Shown piece by piece: positions 6,341-43,920 of a DNA stretch of 64,000 nt. This DNA is from Marsupella aquatica (taxonomy: Eukaryota > Plantae > Marchantiophyta). Below the pieces are notes generated by a model. It did no database searches and had not been told where the DNA came from. It saw only the letters and a list, made by a program, of their open reading frames with translations. The number at the start of each line of letters is the position of its first letter. Position 1 is the stretch's first letter. The DNA is taken from NCBI GenBank assembly GCA_973895155.1, contig OZ316896.1, positions 22,897,722 to 22,961,721 on the forward strand, given 5' to 3'. Made by a program: the position numbers and the translations under genes.

Positions 6341-6699
6341 ATCACTTCCCTCTACCTTTCCGCTCCGTTATTCTCGACCAAAGCTAGGGCTTCTCCCATA
6401 TAAACGTTATTCCGGACCTCCAGACCTCCTCTCCGCCATCCACCTGCGAGTTGCGTCGACCGAAGAGCTCGAGCTTAAATCCTGCGCGCGATCCCGAGCT
6501 CGCCCTCCGCCATCCCCCACACGATAATACCTCGATCCAAACTCTCACTTCTGATACGACACTTTCGATCCGAAGTTCCCGAACTCTCGCTTCTCACGCC
6601 GCTGCTTTCAGCCCCAACATCTACAGTGCTCAAATGATGATAAACCAACTTCTCACTTTCCACCACTAACTTTTCCGCTCCCACTCTTCTGTCACCGCT

Positions 6700-7710
6700 C
6701 CCCTTTATCCTTGGCTGGTTGGGTTCGAACCTTACATGCCTCTTTGCCCCTTTGGTACACTATTCTTACATTTATCTTTACATGTACCTTTGGTATTCTA
6801 TTTTTACCTTTATCCTTACATGTCTCTTCCCTTTTATCCTTGGGTGGTTGGGTTCGAACCTTACATGCCCCTTTGGTACACTATTCTTACAATTATCTTT
6901 ACAATCATGTACCTTTGGTATTCTATTTTTACCTTTATCCTTACATGTCCGCTCCCCTTTATCCTTGGGTGGTTGGGTTCGAACCTTACATACTCCTTTG
7001 GTACACTATTCTTACATTTATCTTTACATGTACCTTTGGTATTCTATTTTTACCCGTATCCTTACATGTCCCTTTGGTACTGTATTTTAACCTTTATCTT
7101 TAAACTCTGGAGACTGAGTTAGAACCTTACATGCCCATTTGGTACATTATGTTTACCTTTATGGTTACATGCCCTGGTACACTATTCTTACCTTTATCCT
7201 TAAACTCCGGTGGCGGTGTTTGAACCCTACATGCCCCTTTCCTACAATCTGCTTTGGACAATGCCCACAGTGGGCATGCGCTTGAACCTTACATGCCCCT
7301 TTAGTACCGTATTCTTACCTTTATCCTTGAACTCCAGTGGGTGCGTTTAAACCTTACGTGCCCCTTTGGTACCGTATTCTTCCCATTATCCTTAACATCC
7401 GGTGGGTGTGTTTGAACCTTACATGCCCCTTTGGTACCGTAATCTCACCTTTATCCTGAAACTCCGGTGGCTGCGTTTGAACCTTACATGCCCCTTTGGT
7501 ACACCATTCTTACCTTCATAATCCTTCAACTCCGGTGGCTGAGTTTGAATCTTACATGCCCCTTTGGTACCACATTCTTGCCTTTTATCCTTTTAAACTC
7601 CGGTGGCTGCGTTCGAACCTTACATGCCTCTTTGGTACGGTCTCCTTTGGATAGTGCCCACCGCAGGCTTGTGTTTGAACCTTACATGCCCCTCTGGTAC
7701 CACATGCTTT
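6700..7710. repeat. Minisatellite array with core GAACCTTACATGCCCCTTTGGTAC; about 12 core copies, ~125-140 bp higher-order units on the left and ~62-69 bp units on the right
   Basis: Core recurs at about 6727, 6856, 6981, 7122, 7222, 7284, 7349, 7414, 7479, 7546, 7615 and 7677; the intervening sequences are homologous to each other. Confidence 0.9.
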
Positions 7711-9290: not shown

Positions 9291-10004
9291 ACGATTACAA
9301 ATAAATCTCGGGGGTCTCACTACATGGATGCCTCCTCATCACCTACGACGTTTTTAGGCCTCGGACCCCCTAAAATGTAAGAAAAAAAATTATTTTTTTG
9401 ACCCCTATAAAATTGGAATATTCTCATAATATTCCAAAATTTTGGTTATAAGGACCCTAATGTTCTTATAAGTCCCAAAATTGGATTTAAAAGACCCTAT
9501 TGTTCTTCTGAGAAAATTCTTAAGTCTTCACTTCAAACCAATAAAATGACCCTATACTTCGTCGCACGTGATATGCCATTTTTGTGGAAGTGAAACCCTC
9601 GAGAAATAAATACAAATAAACCTTGCAAATAATTTTATTTTATTTATAAATCAAGTAAATTGATGATTAGTTCCCACTTGCATGCACCCCACTTTAAATT
9701 TTGCTCAGGAGTCATGTATGGTCTAGAGGCTAGGCTTCACTCTAGGCAGTAGGTTCAGGAAATAGTTTTTGATTGAGATCATATACTCAACAACCTGATA
9801 CCCACTCTTCGAATGTATTAGAGATGAATACAAAATCAAATACTGCAAAAAAAGAATTATGTGCTATTTCCTGTTCATCTTTGCCCCCATCTATGTTTTT
9901 TGTCCACCCTCACTTTTAGTTTTGTCCTCATTGAGAATTATTGTCTAGAGGCTTCACTCTAGACCATAGGCCTGGAAAATAACTTAATTTGCATCCTGCT
10001 GCAT

Positions 10005-10349
10005 TGTTGAGCATCGACGACAATCGCAACGGCAAGCCCATGAACCATCCAACGCACAAGAGTCGACACAGAGAGATACGTGGTTCATCTTCACATTAGG
10101 CTACGTCCACAGGAACACACAAGAGCTTTACTGCACTCTAGGCCGACCGGCCATACCAAGCATCCACAGCACAAGCTCTCTCTATCTCTCAACTAGCTCC
10201 GTAAGAATGAGCCTGAGTTCCTTCTCTCCAAGCAAACACTGCTTGCTTATAGAGTGTGCACAGCATGACTAACCTAACCAAGTCTGCAACTAAGGTTAGC
10301 CTTAACTATGGTACAGTCGTAACTCTAGACCTAAGAGTAAATCCTAACA
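10005..10349 (-). repeat. 3' LTR (345 bp) of the Copia element
   Basis: Matches 25554-25971; TGTT...AACA ends; adjacent to the PPT. Confidence 0.96.
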
Positions 10350-10360
10350 ATCTCCCCCTT
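10350..10360 (-). other. Polypurine tract (AAGGGGGAGAT)
   Basis: Purine run immediately before the 3' LTR on the minus strand. Confidence 0.9.
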
Positions 10361-10540
10361 GACTCTGGTCTAGGGGAGGGTAAAGATTGCACCCTATATG
10401 ATTGCTCAGCGGGAAGTTCTGGAAAGAAAAACCAAACTAGTTTTTCCCTCTTTATACGAGAGTAGACCAGAACTAAGTCGTAGCCTATACAAGGAATGAG
10501 CAATAGCATATCTCAGTATCTACACAAATGTTAAGTAACC

Positions 10541-11312
10541 CTACTTGTGAGACAATTGCAAAACCTGTAACGCATCACGATGTCTAGAAAAACTCTCCAA
10601 AGGAATCACTTTGGTAAAAGCGTTAGTTGGGTTGAGTTTACCGTCAATCTTGACTAGCTCAAACTGATTATCAGACACAGCCTGCCTGATAAAATGGTAC
10701 CTGACGTCGATGTGCTTCACTCTGCTATCCATCACCTGGTTCACAGCAAGGTGGAGCGCACTTTGACTATCACAATGGAGCTTCACATTCCTCTGTGGCA
10801 ATCCCATTTCAGTGATAAGTCTATCTAACCAAATCGTTTCCTTTGCTGCTTCCGTTGCTGCAACATACTCCGCTTTTGTAGTAGACTGAGCAATACAATT
10901 TTGCAGAGTAGACCTCCAACTTATGCATCCACCTCCTAATGTGAACACATAACCTGTTGCTTTTTGTCTCATTCGTAGGACAAAAAGCTGATGACAACTT
11001 GAAGTGTGGAGCCAACGGGGTACTCACTGGCTTACTATCCCCCATGTTGAACCTTGCAATTACTTTCTTTGCATAACTGCTCTACGTCAACCATAGCTTG
11101 CCAGCCTCCAAGTCCCTAGTGATCTCCATACCCAAAATCCTCTTAGCTGGCCCTAAGTCCTTCATCTTAAACTTTGCACTTAGCAATGCCTTGAGCTTAA
11201 CAATCTCAGACCTATCCTTGGCCGCAATAAGCATGTCATCCACATAAAGTACTAAAACAATGAACCCAAAGACAACATTTGTCACCGGTTTAAGATACAC
11301 ACATGGGTCAAA
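10541..11312 (-). pseudogene. Copia pol C-terminal part: RT (FDPCVY, LYVDDMLI, MKDLG) and RNase H (TGYVFT, STTKAEY, CDSQSA, KHIDVRYHFIR)
   Basis: Canonical Copia motifs; in-frame stop near 11082; an apparent internal deletion near 10960 joins PTNETKS directly to the TGYVFT region. Confidence 0.92.
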
Positions 11313-12067
11313 CACTACTACATATTGGCCCCTTTTGCGAAGCTTTTTTTTGATGTCGGGATGGTCTTGCGATGTCATCGACTTCAGATATTTTGTGATC
11401 AAACACGCATCATAATAAACCATGCTCACAGGTTCGCAACATGGTGTTGCGAAGCTAAATACCTCGCAATTTGTTTGAGATCGGATTGAATTCGCAACTC
11501 TTTCAGATACTATTCGTCTCGCAAAGTATTTGTGGATCCGCGACCATCACGACTGCATTTGGATCTCTTTTGTTTCATAATTTAGCGATAATAATGTACT
11601 CAAATATATATTGTGAACCTATTAGCTTCGCACAATATTGTGAAGCATAAATAGTCGCAAGTTACCGAATCCAGTTGATTCGCAAAGTTGAGAACACATT
11701 GGCATCACAATTACCGATGGTGTGTTATTCACAAAGTGTTCAGAAGTTGCTTCTTGACAAGCTTGAAAATGTTTTGCAAAGAGAGTTGTTTGAAAATTTT
11801 GTAGAATGGAAATGTTTGAGAGAGTTTCTTTACAAGATGGAGAATGCATGTGTTTAGGTTACAGCTAGGGTTTTCAAAAAGGTGGCATGCATGAGGATAG
11901 CTTTGGAAACGGCTAAGGTTGCATATATAACAGTGAGATGAAATTTCAAAGTCCAATTAAGTGTTTGTAAAACAAAAGAAGAAAAGTAATATGTTAATAT
12001 AAATAAAACCATGATAGTTAGTTTAGGGTCAAATTCTGGGCCCACAACAAGTTTTACTACTAGTGCA

Positions 12068-15000
12068 TCAAACCTGGTCCTCATCCTCGCCTCCATTTGA
12101 CACAATAATAATGTCAGGTTTTTCCGAGATAATGGAACGGGACCGTGGCACATACGGTATAACAACTGACCACTCTAGGTCTGGTGGGTACGGAATATAG
12201 AAACACTGCTCAAGGTGACTTGGGAATGTAAATGGTTCAGATGTTTGCCAATGAGATGGTTGAAAGCTAGTTGCTGATGTCTTCAGTCGAGTAAACCCAC
12301 ACTCATCAAGAAGTACCGTGCGATTATCACCAACCAGGTGAATTTTGAACCACTTACACTTGAAGACATACTCTTCAAATTTGGAATCGGCATCATAGGA
12401 TATGATCAAGATCTCCTCAATCTTCCCATAGTGAGGCACCACATCTCTGATCACATTAGTGTCATGACGGCTACTTTGTGAATCTTGCATGAACTGCCCT
12501 TGAACTCCACAATCAAAAGTTCTTCCCCTCTTCTCATCAAGGTCAGAAATCCTGAAATGCCTCCCTTGTGTCCACATTGTTGTTCTGGTTTGAACAAGTC
12601 TTAAAGGACCATGAACAATTGTTCGAACCTCAGGAGTCATATCTGGAAAATGTGATACATTCTCACCTTGGGCCACCATAGCATCCAACTGAAGTACTTT
12701 CTCCTTCATATACTCAAGGAACTTTGGAAAGATCCTTGGGCGACGACTCTCCCTCTTTGCATCCTCATAAAACTCTCTCCAATCTTCCATCACATTGCTG
12801 TTACTCAACATGAAAGTACTAACCTGTGTCAACTCCACTGCGGTTAGTAAGCGTGTTTTTTTGCACCTGTTAAACGGTCCTCCTCCACTTCCCTCTCTTC
12901 CATCCAAGTGCGTGGAAAACTAGGATCAATGGTAGCTAAGATGTTACTACAATAAAACATACTCTCAGCTGCCAAGTATCCAGTTGCCATGCTCCCCTCC
13001 ACTCGTGCACGGTTCCGTACATAAGCCTTTAACACGGCCATATACCTTTCCAGCCAATACATCCACCTACAATGCACCGGACCGGCAATGGCAACCTCCC
13101 TCACAAGATGAACGAGAAGATGCACCTGACAATCAAAGAAGGAAGGAGGGAGGGCCTTCTCCAACTTGCATACCACCTCTGCTGCCAATACCTCCATCCG
13201 TGGTATCTCTTCTTCATATATTTCCTTTGAGCATATCCATCTCAACAAAGTGCCCAGTGACCAAAGGGCGTCTTGCACTTCTTCACTCCCCAAACCTATG
13301 ATTGCCACAGGAAGTATATGTTGTAGTAAACGATGATAGTCATGTGTCTTGAGATACATTGGCCATTTATGACTGTCCTCCATCCCAAAAGCCTTACGTA
13401 GATTGGCACCATAGCCTGTAGGAAACTGCATCTGCCCTATGCGTTGTCGAAACTCTCTTCTTTCACCAACACTCAAAACCCATGGAGTTGAAGGACGATG
13501 TTCCATCCCTGTGGATTCATCAACTATTATCCATACATCTGGATGTCGTTCTAGATCCTGGCATGCCTCCCTAAAATTAATGTTCTTTTCCCCATAAAAG
13601 TGCTTGATCAAAGCCTTCCCAACATTTCCCTCTATATGCATGGGGTCTAACAAGTGATGAATCTTCAACTCAGGCCAATAGGGCAAAGTGGCCAGTATAC
13701 CCCACCTTGTCAATCCACTACCATCAAATCCCATGGCATCTTCAGGGTCTGCCACCCTATCAGCTATGGACTTCCAATACGAAAATGTTGTGCGGTCAGG
13801 TATCTCACGCTCATCACCATTGATCATGTCAAAGTCTGAAAACAAAAGGGGGTCAAACCTCATGTGATGCCCAAGTGGAAGAAACTTGGTATGACCAAGG
13901 TAGATTATCTTGTGCAGCCATTTTGAGTACTTGGCCATATCGTGAAGGCTTGGACCACAAGTGGAGCATGCCTTGTACCCCTGAGTTTGGAACCCAGAAA
14001 CAAACCCAAACCCTGCTCACAAAATAACATTCTCAATTAGAGTCAAAGGAATTGAAAAGTTCATGTACATAGAATTAAAGAGGGACTTCCTTCTAAACAA
14101 ACTTGATCTCCAATACATGAAAAAAATACAAATCCATACCACTCACCTGGATAGTCATGCATGGTCCACATAATGATTCCCTTCAATTGGAAGACACGTG
14201 GTAACCCTCCTGTAGTTGTCCGACCATCATATGCCCATACACCCCCCCATAATTTATGGAGTTCCCCAACCAAGAGCGCCAAGTAGGTGTCCATGTTTTT
14301 TACCTTAGATGGACCTGGGATAATCAATGATAGCAATAAGAATCCCTTTTTCATGGACAACCATGGGGGAAGGTTGTAATTCATAACAACCACCGGCCAA
14401 ACCGAAGTAGGGCGCCCTTTCCCTCCAAGGGAGTGTGGGCTTACCCCATCTGATGCCAACCCCAACCTCACATGACGAGGGTCACGTGCAAATTCTGGCC
14501 ATTGTGACTCCACATGCTTGTGAGCAGGGGAATCAACTGGCAACCGCATGACACCGGCCTCTGATCGATGTGTCTTATCCCATACCATCAATTCTGCCAA
14601 GTCAGAACATCGGTACATGTGCAACAATCGAGGAATAATAGGAAACCAACGAACAGCTTTTCTAGGCACCTTTGAGGTCAACATGTTGGTTTCATATCGA
14701 GGCTCTTGACAAATTGGACACTCAGTTGCGCTGGCATTGGTCTCATGATAGAGAATGCAGTCATTCACACAAGCATGAATGATATGGTATTCCATGCCAA
14801 TGGATGATAGAACCCTCTTTGCCTCCTTCCAAGTTCCTGGCAACACATTTTCACTAGGTAACAAGAGATCATGGCAAATTGCAAACAAATCCGATAGTAG
14901 CGCATTGCTTGCCTTGTGTTTTGCTTGAAGATTCATCAATGCCAAGATGACAAATAGTCTATTCAAACGAGCACCCCCATAAATAGGTGTTCTAGCATGT

Positions 15001-16647
15001 GCCTTAGCTTCTTCCCATTGTTTTTGTCCTTCAGGTGTACGTTGAGGCCTTGGATCATGTGCAACATTTGGTGGAGGGTCTCCTTCATTGGGTGGGACAC
15101 CTCCTTCACCACCAATGTCTACACCAAACCAATCTGTCATGAAGTCATCCATGGCTGACTCTTGGTCTTGCATGACCTCATAATCTGTCCGAGGTGCCCC
15201 TTCATCTGGACTGTCATTATCATTGTCACTTGATGAGGAATCTGCTGATGATGTTTCCCCGTCTTGTGGCAAGCCCATTTCTTGATATGTAGCTCTCAAC
15301 CTCCTTGGCAACATATCTTGACTAGGCCGCACATTCTATAGAAAATACAATAAAGTATTCACAATGAAATTAACGCCAAATATAGTAGTGCTCGAAACAT
15401 ATTATTAACAATATAAAAAGAACATGTCATTACAAAACATACGTTCACATACGATGAACGTATAATACATGTCCCTAAAGTAATCCTAATCCCATTCATA
15501 ATGTGTAAACAACTCCTCTCCAACCAGAATGGTCCTATTAGCTACAACTAGACAATGGTCATGATGATATCTCTGCCCATAAGGGGCTGGAGGGGGACCA
15601 TCAACAAAAACCCATTCACAGTTTTTCCTACGCTTAGGCCGGGTCCCCACAGTACTGTTGATGAAACCGGCAATATTCCCACTACGGATGGGATCACCAT
15701 CAATTATACGCTGGTCACAATACTTTCTGGTGCAACCATCAAAAGTATCCATGTCCAATGCATAAGTCTTCCACTCAGGGTGTTGAACAAGGATCATGTT
15801 CCAATGTCTCCTCTTGTAAATGGGTCCACCATACGGGAACAACGTTGGTCCATCTGAAGAGCGCCCTTTTCCACCCATATCATCCACAATAATGTCCTGA
15901 CAAGAGAAAATCCCATACCCATGCCTCTCCCCTAGGGTCGAACTCTTGACAACCCAACGTCTTCCCCAAACTTCTATCTCCTCACCATAGGTTATATCAC
16001 ATGGCAAACCAAGGCACTCCGGATTCCAATCCTTTATGATAGGAACACACTTCCCTGTGAAGGTACAAGGGCCCCATCTACCATCAACCCTACAAGTGTA
16101 CTGATCCACTTCCCCTCTAGGCTGTCTTTTTGACTTTTTTTTCCCTCTTGTAACAATACCGTCACCCTTAATTGTCCCAACACTACCTTGCCCTGCTGCC
16201 ACTAAACGAACAGCTTGTGAAAGTGCCGAGCCTATAGCATCTAGAACTCCTTGTGAGGGAACATAGGGTGTTGGTGTAGTGGGTGTAGGCCTACTGGAAA
16301 CCTATAGGAAGAAATGGAACCAAGTGAGTGTGATGAACCTCCCAAATTTTATTTTATGCTACCTAGCAAGATTTACAAAATAAAATGGAAATCACAGTAA
16401 GTTTACAACTCACCATACGGGATGAAGAAGCTCCCGGTGTAAGACCTCGATGTTGGCCATATCGAGCAATGTGCTCCGCACATACATATGACTTTTGGAC
16501 AACCATCCCCACACATTTTTTACAACCACAAAGTTGGCGTGGTGGACCACTAGGTCGACGTACGGTTGGTTCAGGTTGAGGAGGAGGATGACTTTCTTCA
16601 TCGGAAGAGGAATCTGATGTGGTGGAAGTTGTAGAGGATGAAGACAT
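12068..16647 (-). CDS. CACTA TnpD-type transposase; exons 16647-16414, 15335-14147, 14012-12068, with one frameshift near 12860 (~1120 aa if corrected)
   Basis: N-terminal CxCxxC..C..H transposase-associated motif; IHACVNDCILY..CPIC; Transposase_21 motifs (RLGLASDG, WPVVVMNYNLPPW, WTMHDYPG|..GYKACSTC); DPMHIEGNV; KTHDYH; PPSFFD..HLLVHL; RWMYWLERYM (DUF4218-like); YGKIEEI..FKCKWF..EPF (DUF4216-like). Confidence 0.9.
15486..16301 (-). CDS. SET-domain (lysine methyltransferase-like) terminal exon inside the CACTA transposase intron; predicted 349-aa product when spliced to exon 16647-16414
   Basis: 272 open codons after the acceptor TTCTTCCTATAG. SET motifs in the correct order: HGYGIFS (GxG), PYGG (YxG), DGD..GNIAGFINS (GNxxRFINH equivalent), NCEW, ANRTILVGEELFTHY (ELxxxY). 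Confidence 0.85.
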   Translation of the reverse strand, partial: VSSRPTPTTPTPYVPSQGVLDAIGSALSQAVRLVAAGQGSVGTIKGDGIVTRGKKKSKRQPRGEVDQYTCRVDGRWGPCTFTGKCVPIIKDWNPECLGLPCDITYGEEIEVWGRRWVVKSSTLGERHGYGIFSCQDIIVDDMGGKGRSSDGPTLFPYGGPIYKRRHWNMILVQHPEWKTYALDMDTFDGCTRKYCDQRIIDGDPIRSGNIAGFINSTVGTRPKRRKNCEWVFVDGPPPAPYGQRYHHDHCLVVANRTILVGEELFTHYEWD

Positions 16648-17074
16648 CTGACAAGTATAGCAATTGGAAGGCGATTAGTAAAAACTTCACCAAAACCATC
16701 ATTGATAATCCCTACCTAAACATATTAAAAAGAATTGACAGAAAAATACCTTTATGAGACCCGGGCTTAGCAATGCCTTGACGGATCTTGTGGCTCAAAT
16801 TTCATGAACCAAATCTAGAAGGAGGGGAAAATCTGCCAATATACAATGAATTAAGCCATGCCTTATGGTGAACCAGAAAAAAAAGATGATAGATTGTAAC
16901 CCTCCATATTTACAGCAATGACTAGAAATGCATGAGAAAATGTTATACCTTTCAGATGCCCGGGCTCTCGCAAGGCATTATCATGCATTAGCCAAAACTT
17001 TAAAAAACATGGGGAAGTGCCCTACAACGCCAAAGAGTTTTCCTCTCCATGTTAATGAGATAGACAAAGAAATA

Positions 17075-17930
17075 TAAATAACCCAAACCCTACCCTAAAC
17101 CCAAACCATGAAATGAAACCCTTCATTAAAACCTAACCCAAATCCCTCAATCACCCTAAACCCTTACCCTTATCCTAACCAATACCCAAATCCCTCATTA
17201 AAAATTCAAACCTTTACCCTAAACCCAAACCCCTACCCTAAACCCAAACCATGAAATGAAACCCTTCATTAAAACCTAACCCAAATCCCTCAAGCACCCT
17301 AAACCCTTACCCTTATCCTAACCAATACCCAAATCCCTCATTAAAATTTCAAACCTTTACCCTAAACCCAACCCAAATCCCCCAATTACATATAAAACTC
17401 TTACCCTATCTACACCTTACTTTACCTATATAGGCCAACCCCCACCCCTATAGTTATTCTAAACTTCACCCTAACCCCTAAATTGAGGCCCTTTTTTAAA
17501 ACTTAAGCAAAAATTGTACCCCCTCAATTAGAACCAAATCCAACCCTATATCATGTTACACCCCAACCCAAACACTTACATTAGAAACCCAACCCCTTTA
17601 AAAAAACCACAATTAAACCCCCCAACTAAAAACCAAACCCAATCCCTTTAAAAAACAACCACAATTCAACCCCTCAACTAAAACCAAACCCAACCCCTGT
17701 AATTACTCACAACCTAATGCAAACCTCTACCTTGAACCCTAAGCCAAACCCATTAATTTAAACCCAACCCTTTTATTCCAACCTAACCCAAGTTTTAACC
17801 CCCTTAATTAAACCAAATACTCCTAGATTAAAACCAAATATAAACCTAACCTTTAATTAAACCCAAACCTTTGTTAACTTATATTCTAGTTATCCTTACA
17901 ACCCAAACATCCATTGACACCCCTTCCATG
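17075..17930. repeat. Almost G-free, C/A-rich telomere-like (CCCTAAA/AAACCC) low-complexity tract including a 143-bp tandem duplication (17091 vs 17234)
   Basis: Composition and the duplicated TACCCTAAACCCAAACCATGAAATG... unit are visible directly. Confidence 0.85.
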
Positions 17931-18029
17931 TTAACTTATGGGCAATTAACATACCTTAAATGTCGTTTGACAAACCTTAATAGCCGTTTGACACCCCAAA
18001 GTGTTTTCCAACCCTAAACCGATAAGACC

Positions 18030-18245
18030 TGCCTCGCAAATTATTTCACAAGTTAGAGAATATTTTTGCGAACCTACGACCTTCGCACTTGCTTCGCAAA
18101 AACAGAGGCCGAGAACAATTTTTTGGGTCTTCTGCGGGTTGCGATGGCTTTGCGAAGGGAATAGATTCGGAAGTGCCTCGCAAGTTGCGAGACTATTTGC
18201 GAGGGCGCGGGCTTCACAGTTTCCCATGCGTATGTCATCGCAAAC
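18030..18245. promoter_or_regulatory. Putative bidirectional promoter region of the CACTA with a TCGCAA/TTGCGA motif cluster
   Basis: Lies between the divergent transposase/SET gene (minus) and ORF2 (plus); about 9-10 copies of the subterminal motif in ~215 bp. Confidence 0.5.
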
Positions 18246-18368
18246 CCATTTTTGAACGGCGTAAACATCGGCGGGAGCTTGCATTCGGGCTCATTTCAGT
18301 TTTTGAGCGAGACGAGAAGGGCTGGGGCGCGCGCAACAGTACGAGGGAGACTGTGAGAGAGGGGAGCT

Positions 18369-20420
18369 ATGGCTACCGGTGAGGGGAGTGGAGGGCAAGG
18401 TGGTAGTGGTAGTGGTAGTGGTAGTGGCAATGGGGGAAATCCAGAGAAAGAGAAGAATGCCTGGGCAGACTTAGTGGCCCAACATCTCAGTGCTGCACAA
18501 TTGGGAGAAGTGAATCTCAATTCTCCAGCAGGGCTTGCCTCTTTGAGTGCCATTCTTGGACAGGTTTTGCAAACTGGGATTGTAGCAGGACAAGCTACTA
18601 GAGAGGGGGAGGAGAGGGCCGTAGCTGAAGAGAAGGCTAGAGAGAAAAAAAGGAAGAGAGAGGAAAGAACTAAGTCGGGAGTTGCCTCTCCTCAAGCCCT
18701 AGAGAAGCAGAAGAGAAGAGAGGAGAGAGATTCAATTCGAAAATAGAGGGAGGAGCAACGTCAGAAAGAGGAAGCAAGAAAAAAACTTCCATTCATTGCC
18801 TTGGAGACGAGTGGGACTCCAACTGAGCTAGCATATGCAGGGGCTAAGAGCACAATCAAGCAGATTATCACAAGCAATTTCTCACGAGGCATGCAGTGGG
18901 GGAAGATTGAGAAGGCAGAGCGAAAGAGGGTCATCAACCAAATCAAGGATGCATTTCGCAATGGGCCTGACATAGATGAGCAATGGTTGGCAGATAAGAT
19001 TTCAAATTCTATGTCTCAAATGCGATACCATGACAGGATGAAGATTAGAGCCCACCTGAAAGACTTGAGATCATACAAGAACTTGCGCAGACCCCTCCAC
19101 TTCACCGAGGACATCTGGAATTCGTTTTACAAGATTGAGGTGCAAATTAAGGCAGCTCACGAGTTGGAAGAGTGGAAGGGCAATCTAGATCGAGCCTTGA
19201 AAGCAAAGGAGGCCGGGAAGCTCCCCCTGACCACGACCTGAAGCCACTTGAGCAGAAGGTAGCTGAGATGCAGAAGGTGGCCGACCAGGAGGGAAAGCCA
19301 CCCAAGCGTTTCACAGATGCAGCCAAACGAGTGAAATCCACCCCCAATCCAGTCCACAAGTTGGGTCAAGGCGGGCTCCCCGGCCTCAAGTCACACTTTG
19401 TGAGTGCCTCTTGCTCCTCCCTAACCTCTCTATTCCTTTCAGAGTTGTGCAATGCAAGTGAATGACATCCCCGAAGGTTCTTGCTGTTGTGCATGCTTGC
19501 TTGGTTACTAGTTTAGGGCAACTCTGACACTTAGAATTTCTGGCAAATTTTTAAAAACTCTCGGGAACACAGTTTGCGAAGGTGTTGCGATGCGTATTTG
19601 TTCGCAAACCCCTCGCAAAGTCTATCATAGACTTTTTCCATTTCAATTTTACGATGCCTTTGCGAACAAATGCGCATCGCAAACTCCATCGCAACGCCTT
19701 CGCAAAAAAAGGTGGTTCGCAAGTTGCTATGCTTATAGGTTCGCAAATTTGAATTTTAAATTTTTTTTGGGTCATGTTTAGTAGTTGAGGATTTAGGCGT
19801 CACTTGTGGCTATAGGGTATGCTTAAGGGCAAATTTAACCAATTTTAATTGGTTTTATGCATGGCAGTATCGGAGGTACAAAAGGAAGATATCAAAAAAG
19901 CATATTGAGGTGGCGATAGAGCATGGACGAAAGTACCTCTTTGCGATGGTAGATGCCGAGTTGGCTACTGTAAGTGTCTAAGTGTGAACCATATGATTAG
20001 CATGCGAACATTGTGAGTGACCCTTTATGTCTTGCGGAAACTAATGATATGTAATGGATGCAGGAATCGGATGAGCCTGAGGGGTCGGGTGCTGATGTGA
20101 CCAGTAGTGATGACGATGAGGGGGCTACTCCTGGTACTAGTGGTGCTCGGGGGGGGAGTAGTCGTGAGGTAGGTTCTTCCCACCGTGGTAGTGGTGGTAG
20201 TCGTGTGTCATCAGCACACGTTGATGACCAGGGGGAGGAGGAGGACCCTGAGGATGAGGAGGAGGAGCAGGAGGGGCAGGAGGAGCCAGAGGAGCAGTAG
20301 GAGCAGGAGCAGGAGCGCCGACGGCCATCACGCACCCGTCACCAACAGGATCCCCGGAAGGATAAGGGCAAGAAGCCAGCCAAGAAGCCAACCAAGAGGA
20401 GCCGCAAGAGCCCATTCTAG
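18369..20420 (+). pseudogene. CACTA ORF2 (TnpA-like / Ptta-En-Spm-type accessory protein); exons ~18369-19399, 19868-19969, 20064-20420; disrupted
   Basis: Coiled-coil N-terminus; W..I...ERKRV Myb-like helix; PVHKLGQGG motif resembling Transposase_24 proteins; acidic/basic tail; GT-AG junctions. TAG stops at 18744 and 20298 and a frameshift near 19230. Confidence 0.7.
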
Positions 20421-21208
20421 TTATTTTGTAGAGATACATGCATGAGAGTGACTTGTCATGCCGGAGCTTAGGGTAGGAAGAGGCAGCATAGGTTTAGAAG
20501 GGTAGACCTAGCATCAGATATTTCCCCCCTCTTGTCCATGTATAGGGTTCTTTGAAGCCCTATCATTTTGTTCATGCTTTTCCATTTTATAAAACAACAA
20601 TTTTGCCTTCCACATTGGGTTCCAAGGAAAACCCCTCGCAAATAATGTATTGAATCCTGTGTGATCATAATTTTGCGAACCCTTTAAGAACTCATTCCCA
20701 TCGCACAATATTAACCCCAAGGCGTCGCACTTTTTGAGTCAATTAACTTCAGAACTTCAGATCCAAATATGTCGGGTTTTTGTGATACTTCTAGGATCGC
20801 ACTTTCCTAATCGCAACCGTTCACAAACTTCTGAAATCACCGGTATCGCTCTTTGTCATACAATCCCCATCAAAACAATTGAACCAGTATCAATCGCAAA
20901 TATGATGCGATGGTAAATCCGTCTCAAATATTGACGCCCGCGCGGGACGTGTGCGTGTATGTTTGCAAACCTTATGCGACGTATAATGGATCGCAGAAGT
21001 ATTGAATATTGCGAACCTCTCAGCTTCTCAGTTTGCCATGATGTTGCGATGCCGTTGCGATGGTCCGCGTGCGAAGTTATTAGGTTTGCAAAGTGCGAAG
21101 GGGGTGCGATGCGCGTATGTTCGCAATAGCCAGAATTATGAAAATCAGGGGCTTGTTAGTTGCGATGAGATTGTCTTCGCAAAACCGGCCGATAGTGTTG
21201 TAGTGAAA

Positions 21209-24200
21209 CACACTCCTGTGAAAGTCTTGTGCATGAATCCAATCATCAAACCGCTTATTCCACTATCTTGGTGACTGCTTCAACCCGTACAAGGATCTCA
21301 ACAATCTGCAAACCAAATCCTCTTGCCCTCTCTTCACAAAACCTAGCGGTTGTCTCATGAAGATCACCTCTTCCAAGGTGCCATAGAGAAAGGCTGTGAC
21401 AACATCCATCTGATCTAGCAGCAGACCAAACATTATAACAAGCACACACAATAGCCGTATTGTTGAGTACTTAGCAACTGGTGAGAAGACCTCATTGTAA
21501 TCCACACCTTTTTCCTGTGTGAATCCCTTGGCTACCAACCTAGCCTTGTAGACCTTCGATCCACCTCTCATGGATTGATCCTTTACCTTGTATATCCACT
21601 TGCTGTCCACCACTTGCTGTCCCTCAGGCAGCTTGACAAGCTCCCAAGTTTTGTTGTCCTTCAGTGACTGCATCTCCGTTTGCATTGCTGCAGTCCACTC
21701 CTGCTTCTCCTTAGAAGCACTTGCCTCATGAAATGAAGAAGGTTCCCCTTCTTCTAGTATCAACGCATCACCCTCATCTTTAGTAACAAAATCCTCCTCT
21801 TGCAACTGAGATGAATCAACCCACTGTCCATATCTTGGTGGAGCGCGTACAGTGCGACGAGATGTTCTTCTAGCCGATGACTCCGGTTGATCTGCGTTAG
21901 TTGGTATAGTTTGAAGCTCACCAGCATCCACTTGCTGCTCACCAGCATCCACTTGCTGCTTACCAACATCAACAAACTCCTCTGGTTCCTCTGGCACAGG
22001 AACCAGCTCCATATTTGGAACAACTCTTTCTCTCCGGTCATGGACCTCATGACCAATCTCCCCCTCAACGAGATCCGGGATAGGAGATTTTCCTTTGTCA
22101 GTACGGGAGACCTGAGTATTCTCCCCCTCCTTCAATAATCTGGATTCATTGAAGGAAACATCCCTACTGACAACGAGCTTATAGGCAATAGGATCCCATA
22201 GCCTATAGGCTTTCACACCACTCTGGTATCCAAGAAAAACACATTTCTTGGAGGTAAGATCCAACTTGGTCTTATTCTGCTTTGGTGTGAGAGCATATGC
22301 ATCACTTCCAAAAACTACCAAGCCATGATAGTTTGCTTGCCGCTTATAGCGCATCTCAAACGGCGTTTTGAAATTGATAGCACTAGAAGGAGAAAGATTT
22401 ACCAAATAAGCTGTGGTATTGACAGCTTTTGCCCAAAATTCTTGTGGTAAACCTGATTGGCTCAACATACTCCGTGACCGCTCCAATAGTGTCCGATTGA
22501 GCCTCTTAGCGACACCATTCTGCTGCGGAGTATAAGTTGTGGTGAGATGGCGAGTTATCCCCTGTTCTGAACAGTATTCTTCAAATTCCACTGAAGTGTA
22601 CTCCCCGCCGTTGTCTGACCTCAAACTCTTCACCCTTGTTTCCAAACACTTGACCGTGTTTCCAGTCTGATTCTCCACCTGGGCCTTCCACTTCTTAAAA
22701 ATGGATAAGACATCAGAATTATGCGTCATGAAATAAATCCACACAAATCTTGAGTAATCGTCAATAAATGATACATAGTACAACTTTCCAGAGTGTGAGG
22801 AAGTCGGGGATGGACCCCACACGTCACTATGTATGTACTCAAGAACCGCCTTGGAACGATGTGTTCCAACACCAAAAGCACGACGATGCTACTTTCCAAG
22901 AATGCAATGCTCACAAAACTCTAATTTACAAGATTGCAAATTAGAAATGAGTCCATTTTTCCGTAAGATAGCCAAACCCTTCTCACTCATGTGGCCTAGC
23001 CGTGAATGCCATAGATGAGTCATCTCCTCGTGAGACTTGGTTACATTGGCGTCTCCACATACAGTATTGTCCTGTAACACATACAAATTCTTTTGTCTGC
23101 TCCCCTTCAAGATCACTGTCTCTCCCGACCTGACTTGAAGTTCATCATCAATAACGCTCCATTGATGACCATTTGAATCCAACACACCCAGTGAAATCAG
23201 ATTCTTACGCATGCCAGGTACATACCTGACTCCGGACACTGTGCGCATAGTGCCATCAAACATTTGAATCTTCACAAACCCAATACCCTCAATTTGACAG
23301 GAGTGATCATTTCTCATCAAAACTGAACCGTTTGAAACAGAGTAAGAACTGAAAAACTCTCGAATGTAACAAATGTGAAAAGAGCAAACACAATCAAGAA
23401 TCCACACATCATCTTCTATTCTAGATGACGTGCACAGGGCATACCCCTGGCTTCATAATACATACTCATCATTGAGTAAATCAGCATCTCCATCAGCCCT
23501 AGCCACATTTGCCGATGAAGATTCAGTTGCCTTTCCCTTACAGTCTCGCTTGAAGTGTCCAACCTGGTTGCACTTCCAACATGTCACCTGCCTTCTCTAA
23601 GGGGATTTGTCTTTAGACTTAGATTTGGATTTAGATCTAAACTAGGTTCTATGGTCCCCAGTTGGTCGTTGCATACTCCTCCCACGGTTAACATTGAGGG
23701 CAGCACCAGAGGATGAAGGCTGTGATGTGATGTGCATCTTTTGCTGAAGATCATCACTAAGCAGAGAACTTACCACGTCATTGTATGAAATGGTATCCCT
23801 ATCACAATGCAACAACACCCGTGATAGGGATTGGTAGATGGAGGCAATGAACTGAGAAGCTGCAGAGCCTTCGTCTCATCATTCAAAGTCTCCCCAAGGT
23901 TTTCCAAGTCAACGACCATGTTGTTGAAAGCATCCACATGGTCCTGCAACTTCATACCGGATTCCTTCATCCTGAAACTCATCAGTTTGTAGGAAGTATA
24001 GAGCCGGTTCGACAACTCCTTGCGGTGATACTTGCTCTGCAATTCCACAAATAAGGACATGCAGTCCTTATGTGCACCCAACTGCTTGATGATGGGAGGC
24101 ATGAGATAGAGTGTAACACACCACACTCCTTGCTCCTGCATGCGCTCCCATTGTTTCTCATCAACATCGTCTTCACGAGGGCTTAGCAGTTGGCCCATCC

Positions 24201-24490
24201 CTGAAGCATAGAGCACTCCCTTCACCTACTTCTCCCAAAGCAAGTAGTCAGAGCGCCCATCATACTTTGTCACTTCATACTTGGGTCCCCCAAGCTTGAA
24301 CGTACCCATCTTCTTCTTTGGCACTACTGTGAGCTCCGGTAGTAGAACAGCTTCCTCCCACTCGTCGCACCGGTGATGGTACCGGTGTCACGTGCTCTTC
24401 CTCCTGCTCCTCTCTCTCCACCACAAACCGCCGCGGTGATCCTCGTGCTTCAAGTTCCACGTCTTCAAAAATCTCCTCCGAATCACTCAT
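21209..24490 (-). pseudogene. Copia gag-pol N-terminal part: gag, zinc knuckle (CWKCNQVGHFKRDC), protease (WILDCVCSFHI), pre-integrase (LWHSRLGHMS), integrase (RSDNGGEY, TPQQNGVA), start of RT (KARLVAKGFTQ, QMDVVTAFLYG, SLYGLKQSPR)
   Basis: Motifs found in ORFs 23770-24225, 22889-23407 and 21263-22822; several stops and frameshifts. Confidence 0.93.
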
Positions 24491-24607
24491 ATGAGAAAAA
24501 ATCACGAAAAATAATGTTTTTCACAACTTCTAAAAAAACTCAAAACTAATCACCGCCACGTAGCCCATGAAGCTAGGAGTCCAAGACAGAAAAATTATAC
24601 AAATTTT

Positions 24608-24718
24608 GGTCGCCCTTGGAGCGAAGCTCCTTCTGGTCACTCCGGGTCGCCCTTGGAACGAGGCTCCCCCTGGTCACTCCGGGTCGCCCTTGGAGCGAGG
24701 CTCCCTTTAAGTCGCCCT
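24608..24718. repeat. 37-bp tandem repeat x3 in the Copia 5' leader
   Basis: GGTCGCCCTTGGA(G/A)CGA(A/G)GCTCC at 24608, 24645 and 24682. Confidence 0.85.
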
Positions 24719-25539
24719 CTGAAACCCTATTGCTACAAAAATCTCGCCGCAATTCCCGGACAAAGTTACTATTCACTAACTTGTTGTTTTCCTTGTGCCC
24801 TAGGTCACCGCCGCACCTCACCTCTCCGCGATGCGCTAAATTGCCATAGGAAACACAATTTGCCAACATCCAATGTTGCTTGCTGCCGCCAATTCCACAA
24901 GTAAAAATGATGACCGCCGACGGGAAAATGTTGCCCAATTGCATAGGCACAATCTGCAAGCTCAGTAGAGAAAAAATCTTCCGTCGTGTCACACTCACTC
25001 TGCGTCAAGTGCCAATCCCGAACTCAAAATGACCGTCTTGACGCAATCAAAACATTGAGCCATAGCACTTTGCGTTTCTTCCTCCAAGATGGACGTGACG
25101 ACGAGTAACCCGGTTCAGATGAGAACAAGCTCCATAGCCTGTGAAAAAATCTGAACGTCTCCTTCACTCATCATGACGCACTCGGTAACCATTCGACAGC
25201 AACTCAACTACCAAAATGAACAGCTCACTTTAACCTCCAAAATGAGCTATAACATGTGACGCCTCCCGCACCGCACAACTCAAACCGTTGAAAAAATGAT
25301 CTCTGGTTTCTCCCTCGAAATACCGTCGAACATGAAAAAACTCCAGATCGACGCAAACTTTGATTCCTCCGCACAACGGATACCGATCAGCGAGTTCTAA
25401 CCACCGTTAGAAAGCCCTCTCACTTATCTATCCGTTCAGCCACACACATTCAAGTTTCATGCGATGAAACTCCGAATGTAACACCGACAATGAACGCTGG
25501 AAAACCATCACAAAAAAGACCTCGTCACCTCCCAGGCAT

Positions 25540-25551
25540 GTTCTGATACCA
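25540..25551 (-). other. Primer binding site complementary to initiator tRNA-Met (TGGTATCAGAAC)
   Basis: Two nucleotides inside the 5' LTR; one mismatch to the usual TGGTATCAGAGC. Confidence 0.92.
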
Positions 25552-25553
25552 AT

Positions 25554-25971
25554 TGTTGAGCATCAACGACAATCGCAATGGCAAGCCCATGAACCATCCA
25601 ACACACAAGAGTCGACACAGAGAGATACGTGGTTCACCTCCACATTAGGCTACATCCACGGGAACACACAAGAGCTTTATTGCACTCTAGGCCGACCGGC
25701 CATACCAAGCATCCATAGCACAAGCTCTCTCTATCTCTCAACTAGCTCCGTAAGAATGAGCCTGAGTTCCTTCTCTCCAAGCAAACACTGCTTGCTTATA
25801 GAGTGTGCACAGCATGACTAACCTAACCAAGTCTGCAACTAAGGTTAGCCTTAACTATGGTACAGTTGTAACTCTAGACCTACAGCATGACTAACCTAAC
25901 CAAGTCTGCAACTAAGGTTAGCCTTAACTACGGTACACTCGTAACTCTAGACCTAAGAGTAAATCCTAACA
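25554..25971 (-). repeat. 5' LTR (418 bp) with an internal 73-bp tandem duplication
   Basis: Matches the 3' LTR apart from about 10 transitions and the duplication at 25810-25955. Confidence 0.96.
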
Positions 25972-32000: not shown

Positions 32001-35000
32001 TCAGAGGGCAAAGGTTTGGCTTACAATGACCGAACTCAGAATTTTGAAATCTTCTTGACTTCAACATTAGTGATATGGACTTCTTGTTGGTCATTGATCA
32101 TGCTATCGTCTATATTATCTATGTGTTTGATGATTGATCGAGTTCCTCCGTTGCTGCAGCCTTCAACACCTTGTCTTGGTTTTGTTCTGACAAGCTGCTC
32201 TTTTTCGTGTTTATTGTTGTGGTACAGCTGGACTCCTTAAAATATCTGGGCGTGTGCGCCCTTTCTTATGGACCTAAGTTCATATCTGAATATGTGGTTG
32301 CTATTTGGCTAGCTCTCAAGGCAGAGCTTATAGCAACAGCTGACGATGCCCGACAGGATGTTCAAATTCATGATGCAGCATTACTTTGTTTGACACGATG
32401 TGTAGAATCTTTTCAGAAAGAGGTGGAAGAGGGCGGTGACGCTGAGGTCACAAATGCTGGTATACTGAAGTTAATCTGTGAAGATGATTGTGTTGAGGAC
32501 CTTTTGAGGTTTGTCGAGAAAGACCTTACCAGAGAGTCACAGCTTGAAATCAATTCTGGTGGTAGTGTGTTGGAGAATCAAACAGTGTTTGAGCCCGAGG
32601 GTAACATCTTGTGCAGAAGGGCAAAGGAACAGACCCGGTCTACTGGAGAGATCTTGGCTGCTGCGGTGAAGGCTTCTCCTTCCTCGTGTCACATTGTGAC
32701 GGATAACATTTTGAATCGAATTATCTTGGCAGCGGGACTATCTTCTATTGGTCAGACGGAGATATTGACGAAAGGTTCTCCAAGTATTCTAGGGCTGGAT
32801 GTCACAATTCAGATCCTTGAGGGTGCCGCCAGAGTTGCCGAGAGAACAGCCGTTGCGAGGCTATCTTCGTCAACATCTGTGCCAACAAAGCCAATAAGCA
32901 AGAAGTGGCTAGAACCAATTTGTTCAGTAGCTCCAAAGCTGCTTATGGCCTTCAGTCAGATTACTTCGGGTCATATTCCAACTCAGAACCACTCAAAGCT
33001 TGGAGGTAAACTCTTCTTCTCTATGATTGTGACGAAATTCGTGCATCTAGGAAATATTTCCTTAGAAGCGTGTCGTTCTTCATTTCGAAAGTTCTTGAAA
33101 AGACCCAAAGCAAAAAGTTCAGTTGGCCTTAATTTTACATGTGGCAGTGGCTGGTTTGCAGGCTTTGGCATCGTTTCCTGCAGGGTACTCGCCTCTAACT
33201 GAGGAAGAGCTTGAGCAGTTGTTGTCGATCTTGGTGGAGACTTTACTCGATGATACAAATGCTTCAGATCTGAAAGACAGTGCCCTGGAGGCAATCCTCT
33301 CCAGAAGTAACCTGGAGGAGAAAACCGGACCTGTGAAAGAATCTACAATTGTGACCGTCGTGTCTCCCAAACTTCTTCAATCAGTGCAAGAGGCTCAGAC
33401 AATTGCAGCTCTCAAATTGCCGTTGCAGGCTCTTGCAGCTGTATCTGGTACAAGACAAAATGCTCGACAGGCAGCTCTCAAAGGCTTGCGACAAATAATA
33501 GCAGCCAAATTCATAGATGTAGGTTCTCGTGTACGTGATCAAATGACTGCGGAGAACCTGTTAGTCGTTCTTCAACTTTTAGAGTTGCTTTTGTGTTGAT
33601 CTCGGACCTATGCAGATTGTAGGATTCAAACGATAAGGTCGTCGTGAATTGAAAAGGATGGCGCAGTAAATGAATGAAATCTGATTTCTGGTGTTTTGAG
33701 TGATAGCTCCGGGCGGCTGATGATAATGCTTTGGGAAGGATGGTGACAATATTGGACTCCCTGTCTCAAGAGATTATTCCTTTGTAAGTTCTCTCCATAT
33801 GTTGTAATATGTGCCCTTCGTGACATCTCCACTTAAAGCGTAGGTTTTGAGTACCTAGTACTTGATTCGACAGTGTAGTTTGTGAGTTTTTCTGTCTTTC
33901 ACTTCATAGGATTTCCATTGTAGAGCCCGCAATAGTAGTATAATGTACTTTCTTAGAACTGGAACTATCAAAACACGCCTATTTACGAGAAGTGTTGTTA
34001 TTTGAATGTGAAAGCAGTTGTGAAGAGGGAAGCACAGATCAAATGATTGCTTGTGATATAGTTCTGGACATCTGGAGTGCATGTCAAAGTCTATCTCGTA
34101 CAACATTTCAGATTTCTGATGAAGTAAGATTTCGCCCTTTCAGATTTCTAAGGATGAGATTGAGTTCGTATATATTTTTAAAGTTAGAAGTAGGATTTCC
34201 TACTTTCTAAGGATGGATATTGCGTCAGAAGTTTTGTTTTAAGGTATCCACATCGATATCGTGTGAGTATCCTTTATCGTCTGCTGACTAGCTTCCGATC
34301 GTATTTTTACATCTGCTAACCAACGCTGATCGTATTTTGTATTGAAAAATTCCTGGACGGGTCGAGTAGCTTGTGATTGAGGGTTCTGATGAGGAAATTG
34401 TTCTAAGTATTCTCGCTGCCTTGGCAGGTCCTTTCTTCCATAATGGCAGTCAATCGTGTCACCGTACGAACCTGCCCTGTAGGAGCTCAAGAGAAAATTA
34501 TTTCAAGGGCGACAAACGTTGTCTTGGACTCGGACATCAGTAATGTTTTGGTGAACACCTCCGTGAAGCAAGATGATGGGATGCAATACTGGACTACGTA
34601 CAGCACAAAATTTACGGGAGAGAGAGGGTGGCTTGTCGCGCTTGTTGCATCTATTGTTATCGGATTGTTTCCTGCAGTGGCGTTTCCTGAACGTCCTCTG
34701 CTTCTGAAGATTTTTGTAACCACTTCTATCTCAGAAGACAATTGTCTTAAAGCAAGGATTGCAGCTCAGGCCACTGCCTCTCTAATCAACAAGTGGAAGG
34801 ATACATTGAGTGGAGATGGAAGAGCTGCGAGGGAAGTTGACACCCTCGATGAGGCAATCCGACAAGCTGTTGATGAAACTTTGATGCCTGTAATTATCCA
34901 GCATATTAGAGATCATGATTCAAGTGCCACTGTTGTTGTTGACGACAGTGCTCCGAAAGAGTCTACTAATAACAACAAGATTGTGCGAGCTATTCATGCT

Positions 35001-42987: not shown

Positions 42988-43233
42988 ATGATCGCCATGG
43001 TTGCCGTTATAGGTGCTGTACCGGCCGATGCCCGTGATTCAAGTTACAAGCACCAGCAGCATGTCGATGGATATCATGCTGGAGATCCTGGTGTTGCTGG
43101 ACTGAGTGAGTTCGATAACGATTACAGGCGCCGCGGGCTGAAAGCTGAGGATCTTGAGACGGAGATCGTTAGAGAAAAAACTATGCTGACTGCTGCCTGG
43201 CTTCGACTGAATTTCCATGACTATATGATTCAC
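42988..43233 (+). pseudogene. Class III (secretory) peroxidase exon-1 remnant
   Basis: Signal-peptide-like start, GLS..Y..E.IV, and AAWLRLNFHDYMI (cf. AAxLLRLHFHDCFV), ending at a GTACGT donor; no downstream exons seen. Confidence 0.7.
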
Positions 43234-43920
43234 GTACGTTCTCTCTCTCTCGCGTCCCAGATTTCCAGAAAATAGTTGCAACGAATGTTCTACGACATTG
43301 ATAGTATGTATACGATATATCTTGATATATAATCAGCTCTTGTCATTCGGAATTATGATCCCGAATGGTAAACTTACACGGAAACGATGGCACACTCTCT
43401 TCGCCTGCACTTCCATGACTATTTTAGTTATGTTCTCTCTCCCGTCCCAGAGTTCCAGAAAATAGTTTCAACAAATGTTCTATGATTGGCATTGATAGTG
43501 TATATATTAAGGTAAGATACGATATCCCATCAGCTCCGGCCATTCGGAATCATGTGCCCAAATGGTCAACTCACACAGAAACGATGGAACACTGGCGTCG
43601 CCTGCATTTCCCTGACTACATGGTTCACCCATGTTCTCTATCTCTCGTCGCAGATTTCCAGAAAATAGTTTCAACTACTGTTCTATGACATTGGTGTTAT
43701 ATGAAGGTAAGCTAGAAATGATATATCATCAGCAATCATGTGCCCAAATGGTCAACTCACACAGAAACGATGGAACACTGGCGTCGCCTGCATTTCCATG
43801 ACTACATGGTTCACCCATGTTCTCTATCTCTCGTCGCAGATTTCCAGAAAATAGTTTCAACTACTGTTCTATGACATTGGTGTTATATGAAGGTAAGCTA
43901 GAAATGATATATCATCAGCA
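43195..43920 (+). repeat. ~185-200 bp tandem repeat x4 built from the peroxidase RLHFHD exon end and intron start
   Basis: CG(A/C)CTG(A/C)A(T/C)TTCC(A/C)TGACTA...TTCCAGAAAATAGTT(G/T)CAAC...GTTCTA(C/T)GA near 43203, 43401, 43598 and 43783. Confidence 0.85.

Follow-up and report, generated by a model that had tools for sequence, protein, structure and literature searches.

In the transposons Spm of maize and EN/SPM3 of Arabidopsis, alternative splicing produces the proteins TnpD and TnpA, according to the parts of two reports available to us (PMC13547354; bioRxiv 10.64898/2026.08.24.746577); in the available part of the latter, TnpA-like proteins are reported from flowering plants only. Here we describe a CACTA transposon of the liverwort Marsupella aquatica, in which a short exon encoding a Cys/His motif (the zinc exon) is probably spliced alternatively to a SET exon or to the transposase exons (TnpD). 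The element lies in a window of 64,000 nucleotides (nt), the whole stretch of DNA that was analyzed (contig OZ316896.1, positions 22,897,722 to 22,961,721). Like En/Spm as described in these reports, it has CACTA ends, a 3-bp duplication of the target site (TSD), clusters of subterminal motifs and the TnpD domain order, and two proteins are predicted from one precursor. The alternative product of En/Spm is the helix-turn-helix protein TnpA, whereas here it is a SET-fold enzyme predicted to carry the N-terminal coding exon of TnpD. En/Spm derives TnpA and TnpD from one gene; here, an accessory-type gene is separate, head-to-head and on the opposite strand. The analogy with En/Spm, drawn in an original prediction made for this locus from its letters alone, is only partial, given the place of the accessory-type gene and the splice alternative, which is SET and not TnpA.

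SET genes are carried by HarbingerS and by the SET-bearing MuDR elements of Phytophthora (Kojima and Jurka 2014, as cited in PMC12730594). These are, like the present element, cut-and-paste DNA transposons with a SET lysine methyltransferase gene, but they belong to other superfamilies and have an oomycete host, and the transposase here is of the PF02992 CACTA type, not Harbinger or MuDR. The available part of PMC12730594 does not state that SET and transposase share exons in those elements, "splic" does not occur in its main text, and the SET families are likened here by description only. Fungal transposons bearing TET/JBP genes include EnSpm elements (PMC12730594), and VANDAL elements encode VANC proteins (as cited in PMC12730594 and bioRxiv 10.64898/2026.08.24.746577). 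All of these are described there as element-encoded modifiers of chromatin or DNA marks, proposed or shown to counter silencing, with a chemistry that differs from that of SET.

SETMAR/Metnase is a single-copy host gene in which SET and a captured mariner transposase form one fusion. SET and transposase are joined through splicing in both cases; in SETMAR a host gene captured a transposase, whereas here a mobile element captured a SET, with the two enzymes predicted as alternative products. A literature search, with Repbase, subscription journals and supplements outside its range, did not turn up any account of a CACTA element with a SET exon. The layout is real and conserved, and it combines two known themes, the transposon-borne SET and En/Spm alternative splicing.

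For comparison, metagenome contigs were scanned with SET as query, giving 41 loci (L numbers). Most of them translate to proteins like named Sphagnum models and are called here peat-moss type; L007 represents a distinct lineage. The evidence on splicing comes from genomic DNA comparison and gene models. The SET/TnpD gene was laid out as follows (slashes mark exon boundaries).

16949..17021, minus strand: predicted non-coding 5' exon A, with a tentative 5' boundary; donor AAG/GTATAA at 16948; L007, L003 and L029 align with it at the exon end and the donor
16750..16832, minus strand: predicted non-coding 5' exon B, 83 nt; the frame of its sole ATG stops within the exon
16414..16647, minus strand: shared first coding exon (zinc exon), 234 nt, 78 codons; Ser/acidic tract, then C-x-C-x2-C-x13-H-x4-G; donor ATG/GTGAGT, phase 0
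16302..16413, minus strand: 112-nt intron to the proximal (SET) acceptor, CCTATAG/GTT at 16301
15486..16301, minus strand: SET exon, 816-nt frame, 271 codons plus its own TAG; phase-0 acceptor; PF00856; folded core 16112-15489
15336..15485, minus strand: 150-nt U-rich spacer, predicted to serve the SET form as 3' untranslated and poly(A) region and the TnpD form as 3' splice region
14147..15335, minus strand: TnpD exon 2; acceptor TCTATAG/AAT, phase 0; PF02992; ends CAG/GTGAGT at 14147 and 14146
14013..14146, minus strand: TnpD intron, 134 nt, phase 1, at the same position in the peat-moss type
12068..14012, minus strand: TnpD last exon; end of PF02992, PF13960, PF13952; frameshift at 12855-12861

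The original prediction had placed a 78-codon exon (16647-16414) with the phase-0 donor upstream of two in-frame acceptors, at 16301 and 15335, and a SET exon with its own stop inside the transposase intron. All of these coordinates hold. The intron from the zinc exon donor to the TnpD acceptor measures 1078 nt and contains the SET exon, and translation gave 349 amino acids (aa) for the predicted zinc-SET product, the size expected. The exon at 16647-16414 is the first coding exon but not the first exon, since conserved non-coding exons are predicted upstream. The two acceptors are nearly identical in the window, as had been pointed out (CCTATAG and TCTATAG), but in the peat-moss type they read TAATAG and GCATAG, with only ATAG in common, so the resemblance is not a conserved feature. 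The expected zinc-TnpD protein of ~1120 aa is not encoded by the window copy, in which an A-run near 12855-12861 breaks the TnpD frame and the spliced product ends after 863 aa. In run X1, one of the sequencing runs, 594 of 788 contig depth lacked this frameshift.

Pfam matches were weak for PF13963 on the first coding exon, and were found for PF00856 on the SET exon and for PF02992, PF13960 and PF13952 on the TnpD exons. LASDG, CSTCG, DPMH, HDYH and WLERY, which we take to be the DDE-region motifs of the transposase, are all present in the window. Two in-frame acceptors are expected by chance in about 1 in 9 elements, so a single copy alone is weak support and the case rests on relatives. In four peat-moss-type loci (L011, L013, L029, L031), an extra intron of ~150 nt splits a TnpD exon that the window has in one piece (near 13420), and additional coding sequence is present close to the C-terminus.

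The order second gene, zinc exon, SET, TnpD recurs among the loci. TnpD comes next in 23 of the 28 loci that reach the end of SET, and the remaining five end within 228 bases. The GT of the zinc exon donor was kept in all 18 loci with the exon, the AG of the SET acceptor in 15 of 18, and AG/AAT at the TnpD acceptor in 22 of 24, each in phase 0. The exceptions were single-base changes in copies that are mostly decayed, as judged from their stop load. Conservation of both acceptors and of their phase across family copies had been proposed as a check on the splicing model, and it was found. On the SET exon, synonymous divergence (dS) from the window was 1.15-1.56. Alignment scores of the non-coding parts lay within the range of 200 shuffles each, at 70 for the spacer (shuffles 54.6 ± 7.3, best 80) and 41 for intron 1 (29.6 ± 7.4, best 50). 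With dS above 1, this indicates that the splice sites were retained while the introns drifted. The spacer is 136-150 nt long in the peat-moss type, as measured in the 24 loci extending into the TnpD exon, and longer in L007, where the TnpD acceptor reads AG/AATATG. Loci that extend to the SET stop have it at an unchanged position.

Two or more non-coding 5' exons are conserved across lineages, which points to one promoter upstream of about 17020. In the window, both of them (16949-17021 and 16750-16832, minus strand) have kept their similarity at dS above 1 and carry the motif AGCCCGGG shortly before each donor; it is possibly regulatory.

The zinc exon had been assigned to PF13963, the domain that heads such transposases. 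The Pfam match itself covers profile positions 36-64 of 74 and is below threshold (16.7 bits against a gathering cut-off of 27.7, E 0.0086), and the first half of the domain is replaced by the Ser/acidic tract. Better support came from a purpose-built profile of angiosperm TnpD N-termini, made from the 83 of 118 hits that contain CPCxxC; in these 83 of the 118 models, the zinc motif lies within the first 200 residues. Among 1653 six-frame pieces of the window, the zinc exon was the top match of this profile (E 0.008; next 0.32). The reverse profile, built from the zinc exon, matched 70 of the 118 angiosperm TnpD, with the best match on the motif in all 65 motif-bearing ones, and the profile-profile (hhalign) probability was 88.6%. 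The three Cys were present in 16-17, the His in 17 and the Gly in 15 of 17 bryophyte alignment rows, as compared with 40-41 of 41 angiosperm rows for each of these residues. No such Cys/His motif was found in the TnpD exons of the window. Taken together, the profile rank, the aligned residues and the motif-free TnpD exons mean that a TnpD of normal build needs the zinc exon, and the zinc exon is well supported, by sequence comparison, as the sole good candidate in the window for the TnpD N-terminal zinc motif.

A first alternative is that the zinc exon now serves SET only and is absent from TnpD, whose translation would begin at Met 8 or at a Met further on, through a non-coding 5' exon spliced to the TnpD acceptor, a start in the spacer, or re-initiation. 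The conserved non-coding 5' exons would provide other donors, and Met 8 is conserved in the window, in the peat-moss type and in one Riccia family. The 83-nt exon of the window has no open ATG frame. Against this route, similarity of the TnpD-exon protein begins directly at the AG, before the first Met (NVRPSQDM vs NIRPSEDM). The seven codons before Met 8 are identical at 15 of 21 bases and five of seven residues, and a Ser is kept through AGT and TCT, so that these residues are conserved as amino acids. In gene models of Riccia sorocarpa, zinc, SET and TnpD pieces occur in the same order in three or more families, and the TnpD parts start alike (NVPDIEMLPRRL; GFDPPEVEAFSRR; DNVFPDIRAF). In the families starting with GFDPPEVEAFSRR and DNVFPDIRAF the first Met comes 62-81 residues in, which fits splicing from an upstream coding exon. 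Together with the zinc motif in the first 200 residues of most angiosperm TnpD models, this makes a zinc-less TnpD unlikely.

SET could also be left through a donor inside its own exon, giving a zinc-SET-transposase fusion like SETMAR. Such a join is drawn in several models of Riccia and in one of Sphagnum (P0050, P0049, P0245, P0253, P0200, P0027), P0027 as zinc, a piece of SET, then TnpD. However, these models exit SET at different places, often before the catalytic Tyr, and the varying joins of SET to TnpD look like predictor behavior. The phase-0 GT sites common to the SET exons of the window and four tested loci scored at most 3.5 with an approximate matrix, as opposed to 7.8-9.4 for real donors; none is strong, and the SET stop keeps its position. 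We regard such a fusion as very unlikely. Annotated models of Calypogeia and Sphagnum join the zinc exon to SET, as predicted proteins of 351 and 343 aa. Open reading frames derived from Logan that join zinc and SET (P0177) were not used, because their RNA or DNA origin is not distinguishable.

By comparison of sites and frames, the zinc exon donor is the simplest source for the TnpD acceptor, and we consider alternative splicing of the zinc exon to SET or to TnpD likely. Several points weigh against it. The loci were chosen via SET, and since one family supplies most of them, they amount to about two independent lineages, with L007 as the second, and the L007 contig shows only six bases past the AG. 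Both TnpD and the second gene are broken in the window copy. The dN/dS (nonsynonymous to synonymous divergence) of the seven codons before Met 8 is not low (0.35/0.40, from too few codons), while the first 22 codons of the TnpD exon gave 0.14/0.52. The Riccia evidence consists of the proteins of gene models, with presumptive phases. Among 14 protein clusters retrieved by a search with the zinc exon, none joins zinc directly to TnpD, as also expected if the exon serves SET only. Besides the conserved Met 8, a Met precedes the conserved P-L-Y-x-G in all families, so a TnpD without zinc exon could be translated. For the two-partner model of the original prediction, the donor, acceptors and phases are conserved in two further DNA lineages, the zinc exon fits the TnpD N-terminus, and SET has no strong internal donor; the splicing itself is predicted.

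PF00856 matched the SET exon with E 3.4e-5 (24.7 bits, cut-off 22.4). The nearest relatives of this SET are from the liverwort Calypogeia fissa (66%) and from Sphagnum (63%), and 129 relatives were retrieved when 1.84 billion representatives were searched by profile. Thirty of their clusters were looked up, and species were named for 10: Riccia, Calypogeia and Sphagnum. One zinc-SET cluster holds 360 member sequences. Distant family members have other N-termini (Calypogeia P0233, P0239 and P0041; also P0227, P0232, P0240, P0241, P0286 and P0290); some of these relatives may sit in other elements, including other transposon types, or in hosts.

The SET core is under purifying selection, with dN 0.20-0.23 against dS 1.15-1.50 in seven loci (dN/dS about 0.15-0.19); for the TnpD core, dN/dS was about 0.10. 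A structure model of the SET core from a 103-sequence alignment reached pLDDT 92.8 (30 close sequences alone gave 39). Foldseek matched it to SET domains (E 7e-7), with matches to giant-virus SETs no better than to cellular ones. In VIA, the best Z was 12.0 (root-mean-square deviation 2.7, 124 aligned) and the top 50 lay within about 1 Z. Compared with solved SETs (LegAS4/RomA, SETD8, Set1/MLL, EZH2, SET7/9), the element SET has the same fold at 15-26% identity; it lacks post-SET and ankyrin regions and carries inserts and an N-terminal extension peculiar to its family. The sequence profile placed LegAS4 nearest among solved chains (E 1.3e-7; next EZH2, 0.0017), a hint, though no proof, of a non-plant origin. 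When a profile was built from the close SET sequences, PDB gave no match. Close-relative searches found no SET relatives in phage records, prokaryote genomes or viral contigs, a result that decides neither for nor against a bacterial or viral origin.

The motifs GxG, Y/F-x-G, N-x-x-G-Y/F-I-N-S and G-D/E-E-L-x-x-x-Y were kept. The Gly of GxG was present in 84 of 86 rows, the Asn, which binds the cofactor in SET enzymes, in 87 of 99, and the final catalytic Tyr in 74 of 81. Small or aliphatic residues predominate at the second position ahead of the last Tyr (A 20, T 17, V 12, C 11 and I 10 of 81). By the F/Y-switch rule, such a residue there would allow di- or trimethylation. Typical SET enzymes have a His in an N-H-S motif and a post-SET region that closes the cofactor site. 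Two features of the protein, together with a reported property of RomA, count against an active enzyme. A Ser replaces the His of N-H-S in 93 of 99 rows, and the protein ends Y-E-W-D, three residues past the catalytic Tyr, without a post-SET region. Its structure matches to H3K4, H3K27, H3K36, H4K20 and SET7/9 enzymes are tied within 1 Z, from which neither origin nor substrate follows. The RomA SET domain alone binds S-adenosylmethionine poorly, and with neither the His nor a post-SET region a partner may be needed here, as for RomA; the roles of GxG and of the C-terminal Tyr in SET enzymes are described in the same report (PMC10653858, in the part available to us).

The missing post-SET region and the N-S in place of N-H would also fit a SET exon that is mainly a splicing decoy, limiting transposase by diverting transcripts from TnpD through its proximal acceptor, with a product that is catalytically dead or a neutral passenger. 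This is highly improbable in view of the dN/dS of about 0.15-0.19 over 200 codons and of the persistence of the Gly, Asn and Tyr of the active site across 103 sequences, some with as little as 22% identity; LegAS4, an active enzyme of Legionella, likewise has no His (N-F-S in the alignment).

In trees of SET and TnpD, deep nodes were weak, and co-descent of the two is not concluded. Eight SET-linked TnpD were set apart from 16 angiosperm TnpD (of the 118) by a branch with 100% ultrafast bootstrap. As the tree held no SET-less bryophyte CACTA, a single capture does not follow from it.

In the mechanism that we propose, the promoter upstream of ~17020 would drive a precursor with two non-coding exons. 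Joined to the acceptor 112 nt on, the zinc donor would give the zinc-SET protein, a predicted lysine methyltransferase, from a message probably polyadenylated in the U-rich 150-nt spacer. Joined to the acceptor 1078 nt on, it would give zinc-TnpD, of ~1120 aa in intact copies. The near acceptor is probably the default, so that SET would be the main product and transposase would be made in smaller amounts. An ancestral bryophyte TnpD gene probably took up the SET exon in one of its introns, a step that would have given SET its expression and an N-terminus and left the transposase intact.

If expressed, the SET protein has perhaps an even chance of methylating histone lysine on the element's own copies, helping them to escape or tune silencing. 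This target is favored by analogy with VANC, TnpA and the TET genes of transposons. Methylation of a non-histone target is possible but less probable, and binding without catalysis is rather unlikely. Overall, an active histone writer acting on the element is a tentative proposal. So is the wider picture, which we hold with considerable doubt, that an old bryophyte CACTA clade encodes an active histone lysine methyltransferase unlike plant host SETs, brought to the copies via the zinc module of the transposase, with the splice choice switching between protective mark and jumping. The zinc module may also only supply a start codon and a stable N-terminus.

PRC2 marks transposons in these lineages, and CACTA elements are among the most abundant repeat types of Sphagnum, at 6.8%, according to the available parts of the reports (bioRxiv 2022.10.24.513474 and PMC11982613; PMC9946827). 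With this abundance and the 360-member zinc-SET cluster, the enzyme could affect host chromatin widely. VANC and TnpA are DNA-binding anti-silencing factors, and a catalytic chromatin writer in a land-plant transposon, under purifying selection across mosses and liverworts, would, if true, be a new counter-silencing route. The layout also suggests a route of gene gain for transposons, in which a terminal exon is dropped in phase into a transposase intron and the first exon is reused.

The ends of the element were defined by terminal inverted repeats (TIRs), TSD and empty-site contigs.

11313..21205, no strand: whole CACTA element, 9893 bp
11313..11345, plus strand: left TIR (CACTACTACA...), followed by TTCGCAA subterminal motifs
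21173..21205, minus strand: right TIR (CACTACAACA...), imperfect relative to the left

CACTAC stands at both ends (11313 and 21205), as in TIRs of the CACTA type, and the TSD is AAA (11310-11312 and 21206-21208). Four sequencing runs were used that behave as DNA, with contigs continuing through introns. All four contained empty-site contigs linking 11309 to 21206, and their contigs also spanned the element end to end, with high summed depth and many variants, which indicates a repeated family. Within the element lie 19 of the 22 TTCGCAA copies of the window (7.1 expected for the whole window), clustered at both ends, at 18066-18156 and at 19574-19746. The insertion target was the reverse-transcriptase region of a copia element (10003-25882, minus strand), whose long terminal repeats (10003-10333 and 25552-25882) differ at 10 of 331 sites; this divergence bounds the CACTA insertion as fairly recent. 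A TIR-like sequence at 15390, CACTACTATATTTGGC, was rejected as an inner element end; it has neither TSD nor subterminal motifs and aligns with CAACTATGCTTGG in the spacer of the peat-moss type. In one locus (L021:2449), a TnpD copy is cut ~60 bases past the last match by a CACTA end resembling the left TIR of the window, possibly an internal deletion derivative.

Opposite the SET/TnpD gene lies the second gene.

18369..19400, plus strand: second gene, head-to-head with the SET/TnpD gene; no Pfam match; broken in the window copy

A stop (18744-18746) and a frameshift (near 19222) interrupt it, and an acidic exon near 20050-20300 is its probable continuation. The gene was conserved in 12 loci hits (dN about 0.27, dS about 2) and encodes a coiled stretch rich in Lys and Glu and a helical domain. 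Clusters of TTCGCAA occur in its intron and immediately upstream of the gene. We regard it as a candidate bryophyte counterpart of TnpA.

The shared promoter region includes ~800 bp of degenerate GGGTTT/GGGTTTAG repeats (17080-17900), among them a tandem duplication of 143 bp; in copies of the peat-moss type this repeat stretch is much shorter. A telobox cluster was considered for this region and rejected, as only one exact AAACCCTA occurs there. Elsewhere in the window, a host gene resembling MMS19 has exons at 32138-35441 (plus strand; PF14500 weak; PF12460 E 2e-26), and tandem arrays with units of ~130 and ~200 bp lie at 6695-7709 and 43197-43976.

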